Of a stretch of DNA of 32,000 nt, positions 2,182 to 9,517 are shown piece after piece. Below the pieces are notes generated by a model. The model saw nothing but the letters and a program-made list of their open reading frames with translations. It was not told the origin of the DNA and ran no database searches. This DNA is from Halomicronema hongdechloris C2206. Lineage in GTDB: Bacteria; Cyanobacteriota; Cyanobacteriia; Phormidesmidales; Phormidesmidaceae. A program made the translations under genes and the position numbers. How positions within the stretch are numbered: the stretch's first letter is position 1; each line of letters starts with the position of its first letter. The DNA lies in NCBI RefSeq assembly GCF_002075285.3, contig NZ_CP021983.2, forward strand, positions 3,540,001 to 3,572,000, read 5' to 3'.

Positions 2182-3327
2182 ATGCACAAAGTTATTTTCT
2201 ATCCAGTACAAAATGGTGATACGAGCCAAATTATTTTGAGTAATGGTAAGCGCCTATTATTTGACTTTCGCCATTTGAATCGTGGGGAGAAGGAGGATGA
2301 TCCTGCTATTGATCTCAAAAGCCAACTAAATAGCGAACTTGCGAAAGCAAAACGCGATTACTTTGATGTTCTAGCTCTTACCCACGCAGATTTGGATCAC
2401 ATCTTGCATAGCACCGAGTTCTTTGAGCTACAGCACAATCCTGCTTATCAAGGCAATGGACGAATCAAGGTTAATGAGTTGTGGGTTCCAGCCGCCATGG
2501 TACTGGAGACAGCTACAACCGAGCAGTGGAAAACAAAAACAGAGTTTGTCCTTTGGCGTCAGGAGGCTCGGCACCGTCTTCTTAGAGGCGAGGGTATTAA
2601 GGTTTTCTCAAAACCGAAAAAGTTGAAAAGCTTCCTTGAGGAAAATGGGCTAACTGTAGAGTCACGTCGTGGCCTAATTGTTGATGCTGGAAAACCAGCT
2701 GTTCCAGGATTCTCTCTTGAGAAAGATGGCGTTGAATTCTTCTGCCATTCTCCATTCGTTAAGCATGTTGATGAAGGCGATGACTTACGAAATGATGCCT
2801 CGCTTATTCTCCAAGTTCGTTTTGAAGTTGCAGGTATTCAAACCAACTACCTTGCTGTGGGGGACTCAACCTGTGGCGTGCTTGAAGATATTGTACACAC
2901 CACTAAAGAGCACGAAAATGAAGACAGATTGGAATGGCATTTGTTTAACATCCCTCATCATTGCAGCCATCACGCCCTGAATTCAGACGACAAAGGTGAT
3001 AAAGAAACAGTTCCCCTTCCTTTAGTGAAAGAACTGCTCATGTACGGTCAATCAGGAGCCTACATTGTGAGTTCAAGCAAGCCAATTCCTGATACTAAAG
3101 GAGCCTACCAACAGGAACTCCCACCCCATATCCAAGCAAGAAAATGCTACGAACGGTACTTGAGGCAGATCGGTGGACGGAGGTTCGTTGTCACTATGGA
3201 GGAGCCGAACGAACGAAAGCCACAGCCTTTGGAGTTTGATATCACCAGCGCAGGAGTCAGTTTGAATACGACTGGAAACTCTGGTGTTAACATCATTGTC
3301 TCTTCTCCAACACCAAGGGCAGGTTAG
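2182..3327 (+). CDS. Metallo-beta-lactamase-fold protein, ComEC/Rec2-like subtype (381 aa), ending in ...PRAG
   Basis: THADLDH (aa 67-73) occupies the HxHxDH position. IPHHCSHH, followed by AYIVSSS...PPH, resembles the HHGS...HP tail of ComEC-type MBL domains. GCGAGG lies about 12 nt upstream of the ATG. The stop TAG (3325-3327) directly abuts the next ATG. Confidence 0.8.
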   Translation: MHKVIFYPVQNGDTSQIILSNGKRLLFDFRHLNRGEKEDDPAIDLKSQLNSELAKAKRDYFDVLALTHADLDHILHSTEFFELQHNPAYQGNGRIKVNELWVPAAMVLETATTEQWKTKTEFVLWRQEARHRLLRGEGIKVFSKPKKLKSFLEENGLTVESRRGLIVDAGKPAVPGFSLEKDGVEFFCHSPFVKHVDEGDDLRNDASLILQVRFEVAGIQTNYLAVGDSTCGVLEDIVHTTKEHENEDRLEWHLFNIPHHCSHHALNSDDKGDKETVPLPLVKELLMYGQSGAYIVSSSKPIPDTKGAYQQELPPHIQARKCYERYLRQIGGRRFVVTMEEPNERKPQPLEFDITSAGVSLNTTGNSGVNIIVSSPTPRAG

Positions 3328-5571
3328 ATGGCAGATACATATACCAACTTTGGTGAGGTAATTTCTGAACTCACCGAAGACACCTTGGTTATCCCAATCT
3401 CGCGTCGAGTTTTTAGAGCTTGTTCTACCCATAATTTATTTGAGCTTATCGAGCTAAGATGTTTTGTTCACGACGGGCAACGCACAGCGGAAATGCTCGT
3501 TGTTGATTGCACTAATGACAGTGTCCCTACCAAAAACGAAATTGGGATCCTCTACCAAGAGCGTATTGGCTTAATCTTCAGTACTGAAGAAACCAAAATG
3601 CCTGAGATACGAGCGTTGCGAAAAGATTTCCCCGTAACCTCACACCAAAATCTTGTTAGAAAGGATGAACCTGCGTCGTTGTGCCTTTATTTTGAACCTT
3701 GGGAAGTAGTGCAACGTTCTTGGACTCCTCGAAGCCATCTTAATCGAGTATTATGGTGGCTTTCTGAAACCGCTAGAGGCACTTTACATCGTGAAGATCA
3801 ACCAGTTGAACCGTTCTATTTTCGCAGTCTCTTCGAGATTATCCTACCTCCAAATTTTGACGAAAAAATTCAGCATCCTGATTTTTTTCTGACGCTCAAA
3901 AGAGTAGAGAATAGAGTCTTTTTAGGATGCTTTTTACAAGCTTCCAGGAAAAAAAGTGTTCAGATAGAGCTAACCTGTCTCGCTATTGCTCTTCAACCAG
4001 TAACTCACGGCTTTATTGAACCTTTTCCATATGATTTAGGAACACTTGACAAGCAATTTTCAGCGCGAGGCGCTACTCTGTTCGATTTGCTTTGTGCTGA
4101 GATCAAGCGTAGCGTGAATGGAGAAGGAACTCCAAAGGTATCTGATAGTAAAACACTTCTTATTTTTCAGATACCTGTTCAACGAAGTGGCAATAGTGTT
4201 GTAGAGCGAAATGAATACAAAGCGTTCTATCTCAACATCAATCTTGGGAAGTTAGGCGAAGCATGCGGTGTGTTAACAGATGGCACAGATGGTAACTACT
4301 ACAATATTCCTGCTTTTGGCGAAGATTTGAGTTCCAATGATGCTTGGCGCTCTATTGACGTTGAACCGATCGAGATTATATTCTCTCTGACTTATGAAAC
4401 TGCACGCCAAGCTTCTGGTATCACTGCTGACACTGCTGAACTTTCTGGTGTTCTTGCAGGTGTTGGGGCACTTGGTAGCAGTCTTGCCGACATCTGGTAT
4501 CGAGAGGCGTGGGGCACCTGGACATTTGTTGATATCGATTACATTAAGCCGCATAATTTAGCCCGACATACAGCTAAACATTTTCAGGTTGGTCAGTTTA
4601 AAGCAAATGCAGTCAAACAAACAGTAGAGGAAACCTATTTTGACGGCTATGCAAAAGCTTCTGCTATTGTCGATAGTGTGACTAATTGGTCAAATGCAGA
4701 CTTGAAGACTGCTGTTGAAAGTGCAGATTTAGTAGTTGATGCAACAACTACGCTTGCAGTGCCGCGTGATTTAGCGATCGCTGACCTTAAACGATCAGCA
4801 TCTATTTTTCTAACTCCTTCTGGACACGACTCTGTTTTACTTCTCGAAGATTCCGATCGGAACGTACGCTTAGATGGACTGGAGGCACAATATTACGAAG
4901 CCATCTTGAATAATGCTTGGGGTGAGCAACATCTGCTTGGACATCAAGGGCATCTTTGGGTTGGTGCAGGATGTCGTGATGTATCAAGTGTGATACCAGT
5001 CGAGCTTCTTCAGCTTCATGCTGCAACACTTGCACGGCAAGTTAGGCTCAGATGTGAGCAACCCGATCCTGTAATCTCGGTATGGCATGTTGAGCAGCTA
5101 TCTGGGACCATTAATGTTCACACAATATCTGTGGCTGCAAACCTAACTGTGGCTGCTAATGGTTGGAACATTATATGGAACGCTCGCTTGCAGGATAAGG
5201 CTAGGCAAATTCGTGCTGCTAATCTTCCAAATGAAACGGGCGGAGTCTTACTCGGCTATTTTGATCAAAAATTACAGTCAATCTTCGTGGTCGATATCCT
5301 CTCTGCTCCCTTAGACAGTGCAGCAGATTCAAGTGGATTTATACGCGGCGTTCAGGGTCTTGAGGAACAGATCAAAATGGCGCAAGCACGGACAGCTAAC
5401 ATTGTGTCCTACATTGGTGAATGGCATTCTCATCCACCAGGAATCTCAGCTAGACCGAGTGGATACGATATCAACCTCTTGAGCTATCTTGCTGAGATTC
5501 TCAATCGTGATGGACTGCCAGGTGTAATGCTCATTGTTGGTGAAAATCAGGAAACATGGTCAATCCGATAA
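3328..5571 (+). CDS. Single-chain E2-like / E1-like (ThiF) / JAB (JAMM) fusion protein (747 aa)
   Basis: E2-like module: SHQN (aa 105-108) then SLCLY, with Cys119 at nt 3682-3684. E1 module: GVGALGS (aa 378-384), FVDIDYIKPHNLARH (aa 400-414) and GAGCRD (Cys549). JAB module: NETGGVLLG (Glu636) and HSHPPGISARPSGYD (aa 700-714, His700 at nt 5425-5427). Confidence 0.85.
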   Translation: MADTYTNFGEVISELTEDTLVIPISRRVFRACSTHNLFELIELRCFVHDGQRTAEMLVVDCTNDSVPTKNEIGILYQERIGLIFSTEETKMPEIRALRKDFPVTSHQNLVRKDEPASLCLYFEPWEVVQRSWTPRSHLNRVLWWLSETARGTLHREDQPVEPFYFRSLFEIILPPNFDEKIQHPDFFLTLKRVENRVFLGCFLQASRKKSVQIELTCLAIALQPVTHGFIEPFPYDLGTLDKQFSARGATLFDLLCAEIKRSVNGEGTPKVSDSKTLLIFQIPVQRSGNSVVERNEYKAFYLNINLGKLGEACGVLTDGTDGNYYNIPAFGEDLSSNDAWRSIDVEPIEIIFSLTYETARQASGITADTAELSGVLAGVGALGSSLADIWYREAWGTWTFVDIDYIKPHNLARHTAKHFQVGQFKANAVKQTVEETYFDGYAKASAIVDSVTNWSNADLKTAVESADLVVDATTTLAVPRDLAIADLKRSASIFLTPSGHDSVLLLEDSDRNVRLDGLEAQYYEAILNNAWGEQHLLGHQGHLWVGAGCRDVSSVIPVELLQLHAATLARQVRLRCEQPDPVISVWHVEQLSGTINVHTISVAANLTVAANGWNIIWNARLQDKARQIRAANLPNETGGVLLGYFDQKLQSIFVVDILSAPLDSAADSSGFIRGVQGLEEQIKMAQARTANIVSYIGEWHSHPPGISARPSGYDINLLSYLAEILNRDGLPGVMLIVGENQETWSIR

Positions 5572-5587
5572 ATACAGGAGTAAACAT

Positions 5588-6376
5588 ATGGTTATAGATT
5601 TTATTGAAAAGAACTTTGATGATTATAACCGCAAGGCTAGACTAGCACCTGCCTTACTTGTTAGTTTACCGATCGCATTGACTGTCATTGCATTTTCCCC
5701 AAATCATGTTTGGTCATGGGGAGGAGTAGCCAGTTTGCTTGCTTGGTTTGGAATACTCAAGCTCTTGGCACAACTTGCTCGTGATATGGGTAAAGCTAAA
5801 GAAGAGGAGTTATACACTGCTTGGGGTGGTAAACCTACAACGTACTTTCTGCGGTACCGTACTACACGAAACAAAGTAAATTTGGCTCGTCAACATAGAA
5901 AGTTACATGAGTTAACAGGGCAGTCTATACCGAATGAAAGCGAAGAATTGGCTAATCCAGATTTAGCAGATCAAATATACGATACGTGTACTCAATTTTT
6001 GCTTTCTAAGACACGCGATCATAGTAAATTTTTTCTGATTTATGAAGAAAATTGCAATTATGGTTTTCGACGAAATTTACTAGGAATGAAATTCCTTGGA
6101 ATTTTAACTTCATCTATAGGTGTGTTTTTTATTGGAGCACAGTGTATTTCCAAAATTGGATTGCTTAATATATTTGCAGCCAGGCAAGTCAATAGTTTAA
6201 TTCAGGCAGGAACGAATTTACAATTCTCTAACTGTTCTTCATTATCAGTTGCTTGTTTACTGGTAAATTTTTTTCTGCTTATCGCCTGGTTATTGTGGAT
6301 CAATTCGGGTTGGGTGAAAATAGCAGCTGATGCATATGCGATCAGGCTACTTGAATCTTGTGAAAATTTACCCTAA
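5588..6376 (+). CDS. Membrane protein with about four predicted TM helices (262 aa), last gene of the operon
   Basis: The ATG at 5588 is preceded by AGGAG (5576-5580). The 5534 start in the ORF track would overlap the previous gene and has no RBS. Hydrophobic segments are LAPALLVSLPIALTVIAF, GGVASLLAWFGILKLLAQL, FLGILTSSIGVFFIGAQ and LSVACLLVNFFLLIAWLLWI. I recognise no family. Confidence 0.7.
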   Translation: MVIDFIEKNFDDYNRKARLAPALLVSLPIALTVIAFSPNHVWSWGGVASLLAWFGILKLLAQLARDMGKAKEEELYTAWGGKPTTYFLRYRTTRNKVNLARQHRKLHELTGQSIPNESEELANPDLADQIYDTCTQFLLSKTRDHSKFFLIYEENCNYGFRRNLLGMKFLGILTSSIGVFFIGAQCISKIGLLNIFAARQVNSLIQAGTNLQFSNCSSLSVACLLVNFFLLIAWLLWINSGWVKIAADAYAIRLLESCENLP

Positions 6377-6469: not shown

Positions 6470-6557
6470 ACATAACATTGCGCTGAACCGGAACGGAGCG
6501 TAAGCTTTCTGCTAAGTTGCAAAGGCTGTCGCCGTCCGGTTAGCTTAAACGTTAGAC
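6470..6557 (+). repeat. attC-like site A (88 nt)
   Basis: Left box ACATAAC (6470-6476) and right box GTTAGAC (6551-6557). The stem is AACCGG-a-ACGG (6486-6496) / CCGT-CCGGTT (6532-6541), with the same bulged-A architecture as sites D and B. It shares about 100 nt of similarity with sites B and C. Confidence 0.55.
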
Positions 6558-6745
6558 CGCTTAGCCCCAGTGGAGACAGTAACCTAAAAATCAAGCAAAC
6601 GTTCAATAATTGGTGAAAATAAAACCAAGGAGCTATCAAGGAATTTGACAGTGCAATTTAAATCTTGTTGTACTGTCCTCGTTTTCGAGAGTAAGATTTA
6701 AAGAAGATTTTTATCCCACTGTTCAAATACAGGGAGAGTGTAAAA

Positions 6746-8158
6746 ATGACTTCCATCAAAATCTCTGGTTCACATGATGACTTAGAGATGATTGAGTCAT
6801 TAAGCAAAGAGATTTTTCGAGAAAATGAAATCCCAGTTAAAACTCAAATTTCTGAGTTTCGTAAAGATAGCATTGATGCAGAAATCGTTCTGCCTGTACT
6901 TTCAGTTACTTTTAGTGGGGTGATAGCAGTTGCTCAAATAATTAATCTTATACTAAATATACAGGAGAAGAGAAGCAAGAGTATTGCCCAAAAAGATACT
7001 CCTATCTCCCTCAAAATTGAGGCAAGTAATGGAAAAGAACTAGATTTTAGGATTTCTGGTAGCACGACAAACGAAGAAATAAGAAAGTATTTGAGTTCTG
7101 TCAATCAATTTATTGATGATTTTCTTCGAGATGATGATGGCATTTCATTAAATAATGATCAGCTAGGAGAGACTGCAAGCTCAACAGATATCGAAAAGAT
7201 CAATTTGCTATTTAGAGGTTTGTTAAGCAATCTGACTGATATAAGAGAATGGAAATCTTTACCTCCAAAAAAGAATGGAGAAATAATTACTTTTAAATCA
7301 ACTTTTGAGAAAACTAGCTTGAGAAAACTTATTTGTAACTCCAGAGTTTCAAAGATCTACTTAAACTATGAGGAAGCCAAGCTTTGTAAAGGGCTATTCT
7401 ATATCTTGGAAAGGGAAAACATTTTAACTTTTCATGAATTAAGCGATGATTTTCGTGTAATTGACATGGAAAATATGTTTGTCAGATATGAAGTAGAAGA
7501 GCTTGCAATATTTAATAGAGTAAATCATCTTAAAAACTTTTTTCTAAACGATATATCCTCTCCATCTGCTACTGAAAACCTAGGTGAAGTAATTTCAATT
7601 TTGCTACTCTCAGCCGATCCATCTGATGCTACTAGATTAAGGATCGGAGAAGAATTTAGAGAAATCCAAGATAAGCTTCAACTAGCACAATTAAGAGAAC
7701 GGTTTAGACTAAATCTTCGGATGTCCGCTCGCCCAGAAGACATCAGCCAATCATTACTAGATTCGCAGCCACAAATTGTGCATTTTTCTGGTCATGGCTT
7801 AGCTACTGGTGAGTTGTGTTTTGAAGACAAAATAGGAAAAGTACATCCAGTTTCACCTGATGCCTTGGCAGCTTTATTTGAGCAATTTGCAAGTCAAATC
7901 AAATGTGTGCTGCTCAATGCTTGTTACTCAAAAGCTCAGGCGATTGCCATTGCTCAGCACATTGACTACGTGATTGTTATGAATCAAGCTATTGGCGATA
8001 AAGCTGCAATTGCATTCACTATTGGTTTTTATCAAGCACTAGGGGCAGGACGTACGTTCAAAGAAGCTCATAAATTTGGATGTATCCAAATTAGGTTACA
8101 AAGTATTCCCGAACACTTGACTCCTATTCTTCTTGAGAGAGGCGCATGTGATTACTAA
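6746..8158 (+). CDS. Membrane-anchored CHAT/caspase-like protease-domain protein (470 aa)
   Basis: RBS-like GGGAGAG lies upstream of the ATG. The N-terminal ~90 aa contain one hydrophobic helix (IVLPVLSVTFSGVIAVAQIINLIL), reminiscent of EACC1-type effector-associated modules. The C-terminal ~185 aa match the cyanobacterial CHAT-type module (ILLLSADPSD..RLRIGEEFREI..) with the His/Cys dyad in IVHFSGHG (His350) and LLNACYS (Cys393). The stop TAA lies in a TACTAAC box. Confidence 0.75.
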   Translation: MTSIKISGSHDDLEMIESLSKEIFRENEIPVKTQISEFRKDSIDAEIVLPVLSVTFSGVIAVAQIINLILNIQEKRSKSIAQKDTPISLKIEASNGKELDFRISGSTTNEEIRKYLSSVNQFIDDFLRDDDGISLNNDQLGETASSTDIEKINLLFRGLLSNLTDIREWKSLPPKKNGEIITFKSTFEKTSLRKLICNSRVSKIYLNYEEAKLCKGLFYILERENILTFHELSDDFRVIDMENMFVRYEVEELAIFNRVNHLKNFFLNDISSPSATENLGEVISILLLSADPSDATRLRIGEEFREIQDKLQLAQLRERFRLNLRMSARPEDISQSLLDSQPQIVHFSGHGLATGELCFEDKIGKVHPVSPDALAALFEQFASQIKCVLLNACYSKAQAIAIAQHIDYVIVMNQAIGDKAAIAFTIGFYQALGAGRTFKEAHKFGCIQIRLQSIPEHLTPILLERGACDY

Positions 8159-8167
8159 CGCTGTCTA

Positions 8168-8563
8168 ATCGGGATAGGGGAAAACCTCACGGTCTCCCCC
8201 TCCCACACCACCCATCGTGCGGGTCCGCAATGGGCGGTTCTCAACCTAAGTGCTAGACAGACTGACGGACTTGTCCTCGTAGCCCTGAACCTTCATCCAG
8301 AGGTCACGAATCGAAAGCAATCCCTGTTGTGCTAACCACTCATTCGTCATCCCTGTCTGCGTCGCCAACGTCCGCGACAACCGCCAATATCCCTTCCGGC
8401 TCAAGCCAGTGGAAAGGGCGTGCTGCCTCGGCGTTCCCAGTTTCAACAAATTGCCGATGCGCGTCCTCGGTCTACGCCATTGTTTCCAATAACACATCCG
8501 GATTCGTCGCCTCAGTGCGATCGCATATCGCCGTAGGTTGGGTTGAGACACGAAACCCAACAC
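8168..8563 (-). mobile_element. 5'-truncated group II intron remnant (3' end of the intron-encoded protein plus domains V and VI)
   Basis: The minus strand encodes the maturase tail. It is followed by a domain-V-like hairpin (8207-8238: 9-bp outer stem, 2-nt bulge, 4-bp inner stem, tetraloop). Next is a domain-VI-like helix (8171-8204) with a bulged A at 8175, 7 nt from the inferred 3' end at about 8168. The upper boundary is approximate. Confidence 0.7.
8246..8563 (-). pseudogene. Group II intron reverse transcriptase/maturase, C-terminal fragment only
   Basis: RRRIRMCYWKQWRRPRTRIGNLLKLGTPRQHALSTGLSRKGYWRLSRTLATQTGMTNEWLAQQGLLSIRDLW is the characteristic maturase (X/thumb) tail of intron-encoded proteins. 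The RT domain is absent. Confidence 0.75.
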
Positions 8564-8591
8564 TCACAGGCTTTAGCCAGTATAATTGTAC

Positions 8592-8719
8592 GGTGGGCAT
8601 TATCTTTTCCGAGATCCTTGCTAACCCATACTCAACCTACAATGCCCACCACTGAAAAAAGGTGGGCAAACAAAGCTTAGAGACGATAGCAAGGGGTGTC
8701 TATTATGGCTTTGCCCACC
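8592..8719. repeat. Two tandem 59-nt hairpin units built on GGTGGGCA / TGCCCACC arms
   Basis: GGTGGGCAT (8592-8600) pairs with ATGCCCACC (8642-8650). GGTGGGCAAA (8661-8670) pairs with TTTGCCCACC (8710-8719). Confidence 0.5.
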
Positions 8720-8830: not shown

Positions 8831-9163
8831 CTAATGAAGTTCCAGACAGTGCAACTCGGGATTGTTCAAGAGTTCTTGAATTGCTGTTGCTCCGGAACGA
8901 ATTAATGCTTCGACTTGATTAGTTGGTGCATTGCCACATCGCAACCAAACAACTTTGGGTGGAGAGCCATAAAGCCGACTTCTTTCAGAGAAATCTGCAT
9001 CTTGCGTCACTATGCAAAAGTCATTGAGCTTAGCAAAATCCCAGATTTCAGTATCTGTTTTCTCAGCTAGGTCATGGAATTGAACGTGGCTGGATTCAGG
9101 AAAAATATCAGCCAACCGATTAATCAGCTTACGGCTAAGGTTTTGGTCAAACAGCAGCTTCAA
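8831..9163 (-). CDS. DUF5615-family (PIN-like/Mut7-C-like) putative toxin (110 aa)
   Basis: MKLLFDQNLSRKL...IWDFAKLNDFCIVTQDADFSE is typical of DUF5615 partners of DUF433. It overlaps the upstream gene by 4 nt. Confidence 0.75.
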   Translation of the reverse strand: MKLLFDQNLSRKLINRLADIFPESSHVQFHDLAEKTDTEIWDFAKLNDFCIVTQDADFSERSRLYGSPPKVVWLRCGNAPTNQVEALIRSGATAIQELLNNPELHCLELH

Positions 9164-9414
9164 GCAGCACTCACCGATGCAACTAAACGATGTTCGCGAT
9201 CAGCTGCGAACTCTAAACAAGCCCTAATGTCAGTTTCCGTTAATTCTGGAAAGTCGTCAATGATTTCAGCGGTAGACATACCAGCCGCTAACCAGCCCAA
9301 GACATCGTAGACCGTAATCCGCATCCGGCGGATGCATGGCTTGCCACCACGCTTATCAGGCTCAATCGTAATGATGTCGCGATAGCTCATAATACGGACA
9401 GGCTGCTTGTGCAT
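9160..9414 (-). CDS. DUF433-family putative antitoxin (84 aa; alternative start at 9390)
   Basis: ITIEPDKRGGKPCIRRMRITVYDVLGWLAAGMSTAEIIDDFPELTETDIRACLEFAA is the DUF433 signature. Confidence 0.75.
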   Translation of the reverse strand: MHKQPVRIMSYRDIITIEPDKRGGKPCIRRMRITVYDVLGWLAAGMSTAEIIDDFPELTETDIRACLEFAADREHRLVASVSAA

Positions 9415-9430: not shown

Positions 9431-9517
9431 GGCTAACACCTCGCTGCAACGGACGGCGATTAGTTGGTCGATCTGAGGCAAGAGGTTGTCTGCCGCCGTT
9501 GAGCTTCACCGTTAGTC
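9431..9517 (+). repeat. attC-like site B (87 nt)
   Basis: Left box GGCTAAC (9431-9437) and right box GTTAGTC (9511-9517); the reverse complement of the left box matches the right box at 6 of 7 positions. The stem is CAACGG-a-CGGC (9447-9457) / GCCG-CCGTTG (9492-9501). Confidence 0.55.

Follow-up and report, generated by a model that had tools for sequence, protein, structure and literature searches.

In bacterial gasdermin systems, a caspase-like or CHAT protease cuts an inhibitory piece off a latent pore-former, and in animals the same logic, which leads from a trigger through a protease to a pore, takes a sensor, a caspase and a gasdermin. To our knowledge, the described bacterial systems take at least two genes for it. 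In the current study, we analyzed a stretch of 32,000 nucleotides (nt) of the cyanobacterium Halomicronema hongdechloris C2206 (assembly GCF_002075285.3, contig NZ_CP021983.2, positions 3,540,001 to 3,572,000 of the forward strand; hereafter, the window), and in it the gene at 6746-8158, which encodes a protein of 470 residues ending in a predicted CHAT protease module and which is carried as an integron cassette.

Among the closest described systems is EACC1 with its caspase. EACC1 has one conserved transmembrane helix with a central small-residue patch and short alpha and beta extensions on either side, and its gene lies 5' of a caspase gene (PMC7159879). The caspase domain of KrAvs12 cleaves EACC1 at about Asp49; toxicity resides in the C-terminal fragment only, cleaved EACC1 permeabilizes liposomes, and in models of EACC1 the N-terminal fragment forms a sheet with two C-terminal strands (10.1101/2025.11.14.688446). 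In SAVED-CHAT, the active-site channel accepts unstructured peptides and activation takes place by filament formation (10.1101/2023.06.23.546230). Genes for phage defence are among the known cargo of integron cassettes (10.1101/2024.07.02.601719).

We propose that the cassette gene of the window encodes a self-contained, protease-gated effector of cell suicide or of phage defence, in which protease and pore-former would be part of a single chain, and we give this reading a probability of about 0.45. The parts of the gene and of its protein to which we refer are the following (pLDDT, predicted local distance difference test):

6746-8158, plus strand: open reading frame (ORF) of the CHAT gene (P0001), 470 residues, ATG start, in-frame stop at 6692
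6746-7129, plus strand: EACC1-like module, residues 1-128 (strand, helix, strand, loop, hydrophobic strand and helix, beta-hairpin, helix)
6860-6880, plus strand: loop, residues 39-45, motif R-x-D-[S/G]-I-[D/E] in 12 of 12 family members; candidate cleavage site
6884-6961, plus strand: hydrophobic stretch, residues 47-72, uncharged, with a small-residue patch (S57, G58)
7130-7180, plus strand: inter-domain loop, residues 129-145, with D131-G-I-S-L; candidate second cleavage site
7181-7525, plus strand: middle alpha/beta domain, residues 146-260, confidently modelled and packing on the N-terminal module
7526-7591, plus strand: linker, residues 261-282, poorly conserved and of variable length, pLDDT <50 at residues 269-280
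7592-8137, plus strand: compact CHAT (caspase-like) module, residues 283-464, found by Pfam, PADLOC, Foldseek and phmmer
7793-7795 and 7922-7924, plus strand: codons of His350 and Cys393

The C-terminal CHAT protease module

The preliminary description of this DNA, made from its letters alone, had placed a caspase/CHAT His-Cys dyad in the C-terminal part of the protein, and this was borne out down to the residue numbers, HFSGHG covering residues 346-351 (His350) and LLNACYS residues 389-395 (Cys393). The module matched Pfam PF12770 (CHAT, clan CD caspase-like peptidases) with 30.3 bits (cut-off 24) over residues 287-441, and the PADLOC 'chat' model with 3.5e-14. AlphaFold2, run on the full-length protein with an alignment of 33 sequences (mean pLDDT 79.5), modelled residues 283-464 as a confident alpha/beta domain with block pLDDT values of 76-96. 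Structure prediction, which had been suggested as a check of this domain, returned both a caspase-like fold and the dyad: Foldseek matched the module to the SAVED-CHAT filament 8tl0 (E 1e-8, probability 1.0) and also to caspases 4, 6 and 9 (probability 1.0). The sole sequence match of the module in the PDB was 8tl0_A (phmmer 5e-7), in the alignment of which IGHG stands opposite SGHG, and LNAC opposite LNAC, of the window protein. The aligned His and Cys lie 47 apart in 8tl0, which equals the spacing of the published SAVED-CHAT dyad H375/C422 (10.1101/2023.06.23.546230), and by homology this identifies His350 and Cys393 as the catalytic pair. Judged by homology and by the predicted fold, residues 283-464 are a CHAT caspase-like protease module with an intact His350/Cys393 dyad.

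An exhaustive HMMER search with the CHAT module gave 3937 clusters (50% identity level) with E <1e-30. The module is 65-77% identical over thousands of otherwise unrelated proteins, which is a striking constancy, and the best 150 matches were mostly 60-76% identical to the query. Among the 245 full CHAT modules of the collected proteins, 192 were C-terminal, 36 internal and 17 N-terminal, with two copies in six of the proteins; at least 231 of these modules retain the His, and at least 223 the Cys. The partner domains comprised TIR, LRR, WD40, TPR, protein kinase, receiver, GUN4, HEAT, peptidoglycan-binding and the effector-associated domain PF19960. Such constancy in at least 3937 clusters with unrelated partners is unusual for a domain of conflict systems. 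The module had been described as usually fused, in cyanobacteria, to STAND NTPases, TPR or WD40 arrays; the TPR and WD40 partners were indeed found, but STAND fusions of the compact module were not seen in the word-based search, which covered only proteins of 258-823 residues. The cassette of the window itself holds no NTPase gene, in line with the earlier statement that the gene lacks a sensor NTPase partner. A second CHAT copy is present in the window's genome, at the N-terminus of a 501-residue protein and 53% identical. The source names of CHAT-bearing proteins included cyanobacteria, Proteobacteria, Chloroflexota (Caldilineaceae), Zixibacteria and a Nitrososphaera bin.

The N-terminal module and its resemblance to EACC1

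We compared two AlphaFold2 models, one of the whole protein and one of residues 1-286 (predicted template modelling score 0.70). Both gave the same elements for the N-terminal module, i.e., strand 2-7, helix 10-26, strand 31-36, loop 39-45, strand 51-56, helix 62-79, hairpin 87-93/98-103 and helix 109-128. The highest 19-residue Kyte-Doolittle window (2.14) lies at residues 47-66, and residues 47 to 73 include no charged one. This hydrophobicity is kept across the family (2.0-2.3), and G58 is invariant. In the AlphaFold2 models, the module is a soluble domain of ferredoxin-like fold, whose core strand and adjoining helix, packed with residues 1-36, are supplied by the hydrophobic stretch. The N-terminal part had been described as a segment of about 90 residues with a single transmembrane helix; the uncharged hydrophobic stretch is present, but the unit comprises about 128 residues and is modelled as a soluble domain, and 'membrane-anchored' is, on these models, better read as 'latent membrane-active module'.

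The densest invariant run of the module (I35, R39, D41, I43, L49, P50, L52, F56 and G58) lies within and around the loop 39-45, the most conserved part of the module, which is nevertheless predicted to be disordered, with pLDDT <50 in both models. The second loop is of intermediate pLDDT in both models (blocks of 10 residues, 53-59 at 131-140 and 67-71 at 141-150), and its D-G-I-S-L motif is found in nine of nine CHAT-fused family members and in P0016, with DGTPL at this place in P0010. Residues 42-131, the counterpart of the toxic part of EACC1, lie between the two D-[S/G]-I motifs, and we infer from this arrangement that both loops are candidate cleavage sites.

The main rival to a latent pore-former is a protease that is anchored to, or associated with, the membrane by a plain anchor (N-terminus out, C-terminus in) and that kills or signals by cutting other host or phage proteins, as PCaspase does once SAVED-CHAT has activated it, while its N-terminal and middle parts only localize or sense. 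The uncharged stretch 47-72 is followed by a K/R-rich segment, which agrees with the positive-inside rule, clear transmembrane helices are present in about 10 others of the 242 collected proteins, and a near-constant CHAT unit on many domains suits a generic output protease with conserved targets of its own. However, the hydrophobicity of the stretch (2.1-2.3) is below that of clear anchors (2.6-3.2), the soluble fold with residues 1-36 is a confident one, and the conserved disordered loop before the stretch would be left unexplained. Besides, the N-terminal and middle parts also exist without the protease (see below), and a localizer with no cargo is hard to explain. We therefore regard an anchored protease that acts on other proteins as unlikely, while it is still the main competitor of the single-chain protease and pore-former proposed here.

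For the latter reading, the resemblance to EACC1 is central. Residues 1-128 have the hydrophobic helix, the small-residue patch and the alpha/beta flanks of EACC1, and the conserved loop 39-45 sits where the activating cut of EACC1 (Asp49) was mapped. As a comparison set we used syntenic cyanobacterial ORFs located 5' of genes matching the NCBIfam model 'caspase, EACC1-associated type', and these ORFs are not accepted Pfam members. Matches exceeding the cut-off of the NCBIfam model occurred in 34 of the 301 cyanobacterial genomes searched, and two such loci are found in the window's genome (G000:C1:2002751-2003395 and 4565704-4566354). At 10 of the 12 best loci (L010-L021; e.g., L010:1081-1458:+ and L015:2157-2507:-), an ORF of 116-143 residues lies directly 5' of the caspase gene, and these ORFs have the same element order and size as residues 1-128. 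Two of the seven ORFs scanned gave a sub-threshold match to the Pfam EACC1 model PF19953 (14.5 bits, E 0.03) over nearly the whole model. Neither a six-frame search of the window's genome nor a search of 251 cyanobacterial genomes gave a match to PF19953. These observations point to an annotation gap, in which the cyanobacterial EACC1-like proteins are missed, or barely touched (E 0.03), by the Pfam model.

The profile of family residues 1-135 was aligned to that of the cyanobacterial ORFs by hhalign with P 4.5e-4, a score of 28.4 and a probability of 16-33% over about 40 columns; the control scores were 15-16 for reversed profiles and at most 21.9 for 60 column shuffles, and the global mode gave no match. 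Reciprocal hidden Markov model searches scored 5-12 bits, the median real scores being above 99% of 480 shuffles. The match spans only the hairpin and the next helix, which are co-linear (84-123 here, 88-123 there) and share a local motif, roughly I-x-[LI]-x-[IV]-E-A-x-N-G-K-x-L. In the Atlas feature search, PF19953-bearing clusters made up eight of the 30 nearest (score 0.90). Short relatives of residues 1-130 were sought with a word-based search, which returned nothing, and a search of this kind with the EACC1-like ORF of L015 left it an orphan. Where EACC1 is a small stand-alone protein 5' of an EACC1-type caspase, the N-terminal module of the window protein is fused in one chain. The earlier comparison with EACC1 thus drew support from weak reciprocal profile matches and from the Atlas lead, but not from the Pfam family, and on the strength of these alignments we lean towards homology between the N-terminal module and EACC1.

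The middle domain and the rarity of the family

The middle domain, modelled within the larger chain, had no match in Pfam, in Foldseek searches of the PDB and BFVD, in VIA-align wide, in Atlas or in a sequence profile search of the PDB. By eye only, the order helix-strand-helix-helix-hairpin of residues 192-252 recalls a winged helix. P0123 was considered as a relative of the middle region and ruled out, being merely a tandem CHAT protein.

Three relatives consist of the N-terminal and middle parts only and end at the linker, i.e., P0010, P0016 and a 277-residue ORF of G230 (L004:9156-9989, minus strand). The G230 gene lies between cobN and a Fic gene, with no space for a CHAT module 3' of it. 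The N-terminal and middle parts thus form a unit that can stand apart from the protease, as a substrate or effector would, and the alignments indicate that the CHAT module was added to this unit at the linker. If the N-terminal module is a protease-activated toxin, the stand-alone copies would need a protease in trans.

The family is rare. Eight full-length relatives (58-97% identity) were found among 5.8 billion proteins, and no additional relative of the N-terminal part among 1.8 billion representatives. Scans for homologues in genome contigs and viral contigs found nothing. The second match of the search of 400 other cyanobacterial genomes, in G213, was rejected as a pilin-like protein aligned through its hydrophobic segment. 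This distribution bears on another possible role, that of a regulatory or housekeeping cyanobacterial protease similar to HetF, which reportedly cuts PatU3 in Anabaena. Cyanobacterial CHAT proteases with developmental roles do exist (PMC9457339 and PMC8406250); however, only one true relative of the N-terminal and middle parts occurs in 400 other cyanobacterial genomes and none in two genomes of the same family, and the foreign composition, the carriage on a cassette and the variable contexts of the gene (see below) also speak against such a role, which we consider very improbable.

Carriage on an integron cassette

The gene had been described as a cassette of its own, and the sequence around it agrees with this at both ends. 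The elements concerned are as follows:

6470-6557, plus strand: attC closing the preceding WYL + 6A-MBL cassette, left box ACATAAC, right box GTTAGAC (6551-6557)
6552-8168, plus strand: CHAT gene cassette, 1617 nt, with TTAGAC at its start and the complementary GTCTAA at its end
6552-6745, plus strand: cassette leader, kept in all three aligned copies (window, L008 and L009)
8163-8168, plus strand: GTCTAA, the left box of the cassette's own attC and all that remains of this site in the window
8169-8515, minus strand: last 347 nt at the 3' end of a group II intron, comprising domains V and VI and the end of the maturase ORF; antisense in attC, 5' side truncated
L022:3806-4864, minus strand, 137-1195 nt before the window start: broken integron integrase, two adjacent ORFs matching TIGR02249 model positions 1-179 and 183-301

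The crossover of the attC at 6470-6557 lies between G6551 and T6552, and the site forms an imperfect hairpin (DNA parameters) of -15.1 kcal/mol with a z-score of -2.9; over the five scored attC sites, from which the L009 site was left out, hairpin z-scores ranged from -1.5 to -4.2. The start of the cassette is complementary to its end, as expected of a unit excised at G|TT. When metagenomes were scanned with residues 1-286 as the query, two full-length copies came up, L008 (Ga0224723_1008505) and L009 (QLAH01001091.1). The DNA homology of the three copies sets in precisely with the right box of the attC (GTTAGAC in both the window and L008, GTTAAAC in L009) and continues through the leader into the gene. 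In both L008 and L009, a full attC follows 3' of the stop codon (GTCTAAC...GTTAGAC and GTCCTAAC...GTTAGAT, respectively), the left parts of these intact sites being GTCTAACAA... in L008 and GTCCTAACAA... in L009. The guanine plus cytosine (GC) content is 35.6% in the cassette, compared to 53% in the window and 57.5% in the right-hand part of the window, and the L008 and L009 copies have 35% GC with flanks of 45% and 53%. By these features of its sequence, 6552-8168 is a true single-gene integron cassette, horizontally acquired and of foreign origin. Further attC-like sites are present in the window at 855-914 and 9431-9517. In L009, short GGTTATCTG and GCTGGATAA units alternate 5' of the cassette (L009:6590-6840), where an attC is expected.

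The cassette's own attC is interrupted after its left box. We identify the interrupting fragment as an intron because it is 74% identical in DNA to the 3' end of a complete intron of the same genome (G000:C1:875.5-877.4 kb, in L024, G000:C1:875528-878873), which has Rfam D1-D4 and RF00029 (domain V/VI) matches and a 445-residue ORF. The ORF remnant in the fragment gave a weak GIIM match, and Rfam had no group II intron match on 8169-8515 itself. Group IIC introns habitually target attC sites, and the antisense fragment, which begins right after GTCTAA, would fit this habit if it belongs to that class. The intron fragment is truncated by a 107-nt stretch (8514-8620) that is 100% identical to G000:C1:3110405-3110511 and 92% to a nearby site, and which is probably a small mobile repeat. 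The integrase, located on the opposite strand with its nearer end 137 nt before the window start, is split into two ORFs, which indicates that the integron recombinase is broken.

Within the cassette, a ribosome-binding site (GGGAGAG, 6732-6738) lies 7 nt 5' of the ORF start, and the N-terminus MTSIKISG is common to every homologue in the alignment. The gene had been credited with an upstream region of its own and a consensus TTGACA at 6645-6650. The leader is indeed conserved and the TTGACA lies inside it, but this position reads TGAACA and TCAGCA in the two homologous cassettes and is thus not conserved, and the promoter scan found no -10 partner for it and no consensus promoter pair in the leader. 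With the integrase broken, the attC destroyed by the intron fragment and such a leader, the gene could be a stranded passenger that is no longer functional. On the other hand, the ORF is intact over 470 codons, has lost neither the dyad nor any of the family-invariant residues and shares 97% identity with another database member. The leader, too, is conserved, and we think it quite improbable that function has been lost.

Relation to the neighbouring 6A-MBL operon

The operon upstream of the CHAT gene (2182-6376) is a named system, 6A-MBL, according to NCBIfam equivalogs (MBL protein, 387 bits; cap2_3, 682 bits), which match only 2182-3327 and 3328-5571 and not the CHAT gene. The preliminary description had asked whether the CHAT gene is independent of this E2-E1-JAB operon or cross-talks with it. 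In the second case, the protein would be an accessory effector of 6A-MBL, either (de)conjugated by it or processing its MBL protein. The gene adjoins the operon on the same strand, 370 nt 3' of the last operon gene, and MBL effectors can be protease-activated in other systems (10.1101/2025.11.14.688446). However, the attC at 6470-6557 separates the two, and the GC content of the operon is 42.8%, compared to 35.6% in the CHAT cassette. Genes of 6A-MBL occur in none of the three homologue contexts (L008, L009 and G230), and cap2_3 was not found in the 400 other cyanobacterial genomes searched. The neighbours of the homologues are an IS1 and a tachylectin-like gene in L008, DUF362, sulfatase and Uma2 genes in L009, and CobN, Fic, a DUF433/DUF5615 pair and a C5 methylase in G230. 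Because an attC lies between, the GC content differs, the relatives' neighbours are unrelated and cap2_3 was not found in the other genomes searched, we read the adjacency as cassette order; as far as sequence comparison goes, the CHAT gene is not part of 6A-MBL, and a role as its accessory has hardly any likelihood. The neighbourhood survey that had been proposed for the homologues showed three varying contexts and no shared partner gene, i.e., the CHAT gene travels without a conserved partner gene.

The 6A-MBL cassette is itself a rare import in Cyanobacteria, cap2_3 being found in none of the 400 other genomes. The neighbouring cassettes hold 6A-MBL and a putative DUF433/DUF5615 toxin-antitoxin pair; at 8831-9414 of the window (minus strand), there are a DUF5615 (PIN-like) gene and an adjacent ORF of 84 residues (9160-9414). 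A DUF433/DUF5615 pair also adjoins the family member of G230 (L004:6752-7371, minus strand), which may be a coincidence or reflect a shared island flora.

Proposed mechanism

In the mechanism that we propose, residues 1-128 would be a distant relative of EACC1 or at least its functional analogue. The EACC1-like core would be harmless as long as the N-terminal strand-helix-strand caps the hydrophobic helix and the beta-hairpin, as EACC1 itself is until a caspase-like protease cuts its connecting loop and it oligomerizes into a membrane pore. The CHAT module would be activated, probably by oligomerization as in other CHAT and caspase enzymes, with the middle domain (residues 146-260) as the only candidate sensor for the switch. 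The activated protease may then cut the R-x-D-[S/G]-I loop at 39-45, and perhaps also the D-G-I-S-L loop at 131-135. The cut at 39-45 would detach the hydrophobic core from its N-terminal cap, and the released core (about residues 42-131) would permeabilize the membrane, so that the infected cell dies or is arrested. Cleavage, pore formation and the role in defence are in this scheme deduced for the window protein from the comparisons given above.

Several observations weigh against this mechanism. The Pfam EACC1 model PF19953 (cut-off 23.6 bits) had no match, with E up to 10, in residues 1-100 or 1-286, and BLASTP against a cyanobacterial EACC1-like ORF found nothing. The profile similarity is limited to about 40 residues with low scores, and the ferredoxin-like fold is a common one. 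The CHAT module is not of the EACC1-associated caspase type (NF047832, 12.6 bits with a cut-off of 140). A single cut would leave 340 residues attached to the toxic core, and the D-G-I-S-L motif of the second loop is absent from the homologue of G230, the most distant one. The loops are candidate targets of the CHAT module itself, and the middle domain, which matched no family, is a candidate sensor. Finally, since the cassette's attC is destroyed and the integrase broken, the gene may be stranded.

A narrower claim would be that the window protein is the first single-polypeptide combination of a caspase and a pore-former, in which the core (about residues 42-131) is kept inactive between an N-terminal cap and a C-terminal sensor-protease, is self-excised at two D-[S/G]-I sites and is mobile as a cassette; we consider this doubtful. 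If the proposed mechanism is true, the death pathway from trigger through protease to pore would be compressed into one protein of 470 residues. Such a protein would provide a minimal system for understanding how caspase-like proteases switch on, how latent pore-formers are kept in check and how these modules spread on integron cassettes.

Comparison with known systems

Similar to the phage-defence integron cassettes described by Kieffer et al. (10.1101/2024.07.02.601719), the CHAT gene is a compact, defence-type gene bounded by attC sites beside other defence cassettes. It differs from them in that its integron is located in a cyanobacterial chromosome and has a broken integrase, and in that it belongs to a gene family known from sequence alone.

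The closest solved structure is that of SAVED-CHAT from the type III-B CRISPR system of Haliangium ochraceum (8tl0; 10.1101/2023.06.23.546230), which has a peptide-accepting channel and is activated by oligomerization. The dyads of the two proteins align, at an identity of about 21% to the window module. SAVED-CHAT has a SAVED sensor and cyclic-nucleotide signalling, neither of which is found here, and its substrate is a second protease, PCaspase.

The EACC1-caspase System 4 (PMC7159879; KrEACC1-KrAvs12, 10.1101/2025.11.14.688446) likewise combines a protease of the caspase superfamily with a module of about 125 residues and the same element order, with a conserved exposed loop at the cut (Asp49 there; the R39/D41 loop here, as predicted). 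There is weak reciprocal profile similarity to its cyanobacterial members, and the expected outcome, membrane permeabilization, is the same. However, two genes are involved there and one polypeptide here, and the protease is an EACC1-associated caspase there and a compact CHAT module here, which falls below the NF047832 cut-off. The window protein also has an extra middle domain of 115 residues, is devoid of a fused STAND, diversity-generating retroelement or other sensor, does not match Pfam EACC1 and is carried as an integron cassette.

With the bacterial gasdermin systems, the window protein shares the proposed logic. No gasdermin fold or sequence signal is present here, and the inhibitory piece would in this case be N-terminal and part of the same single chain as the protease and the pore-forming core.

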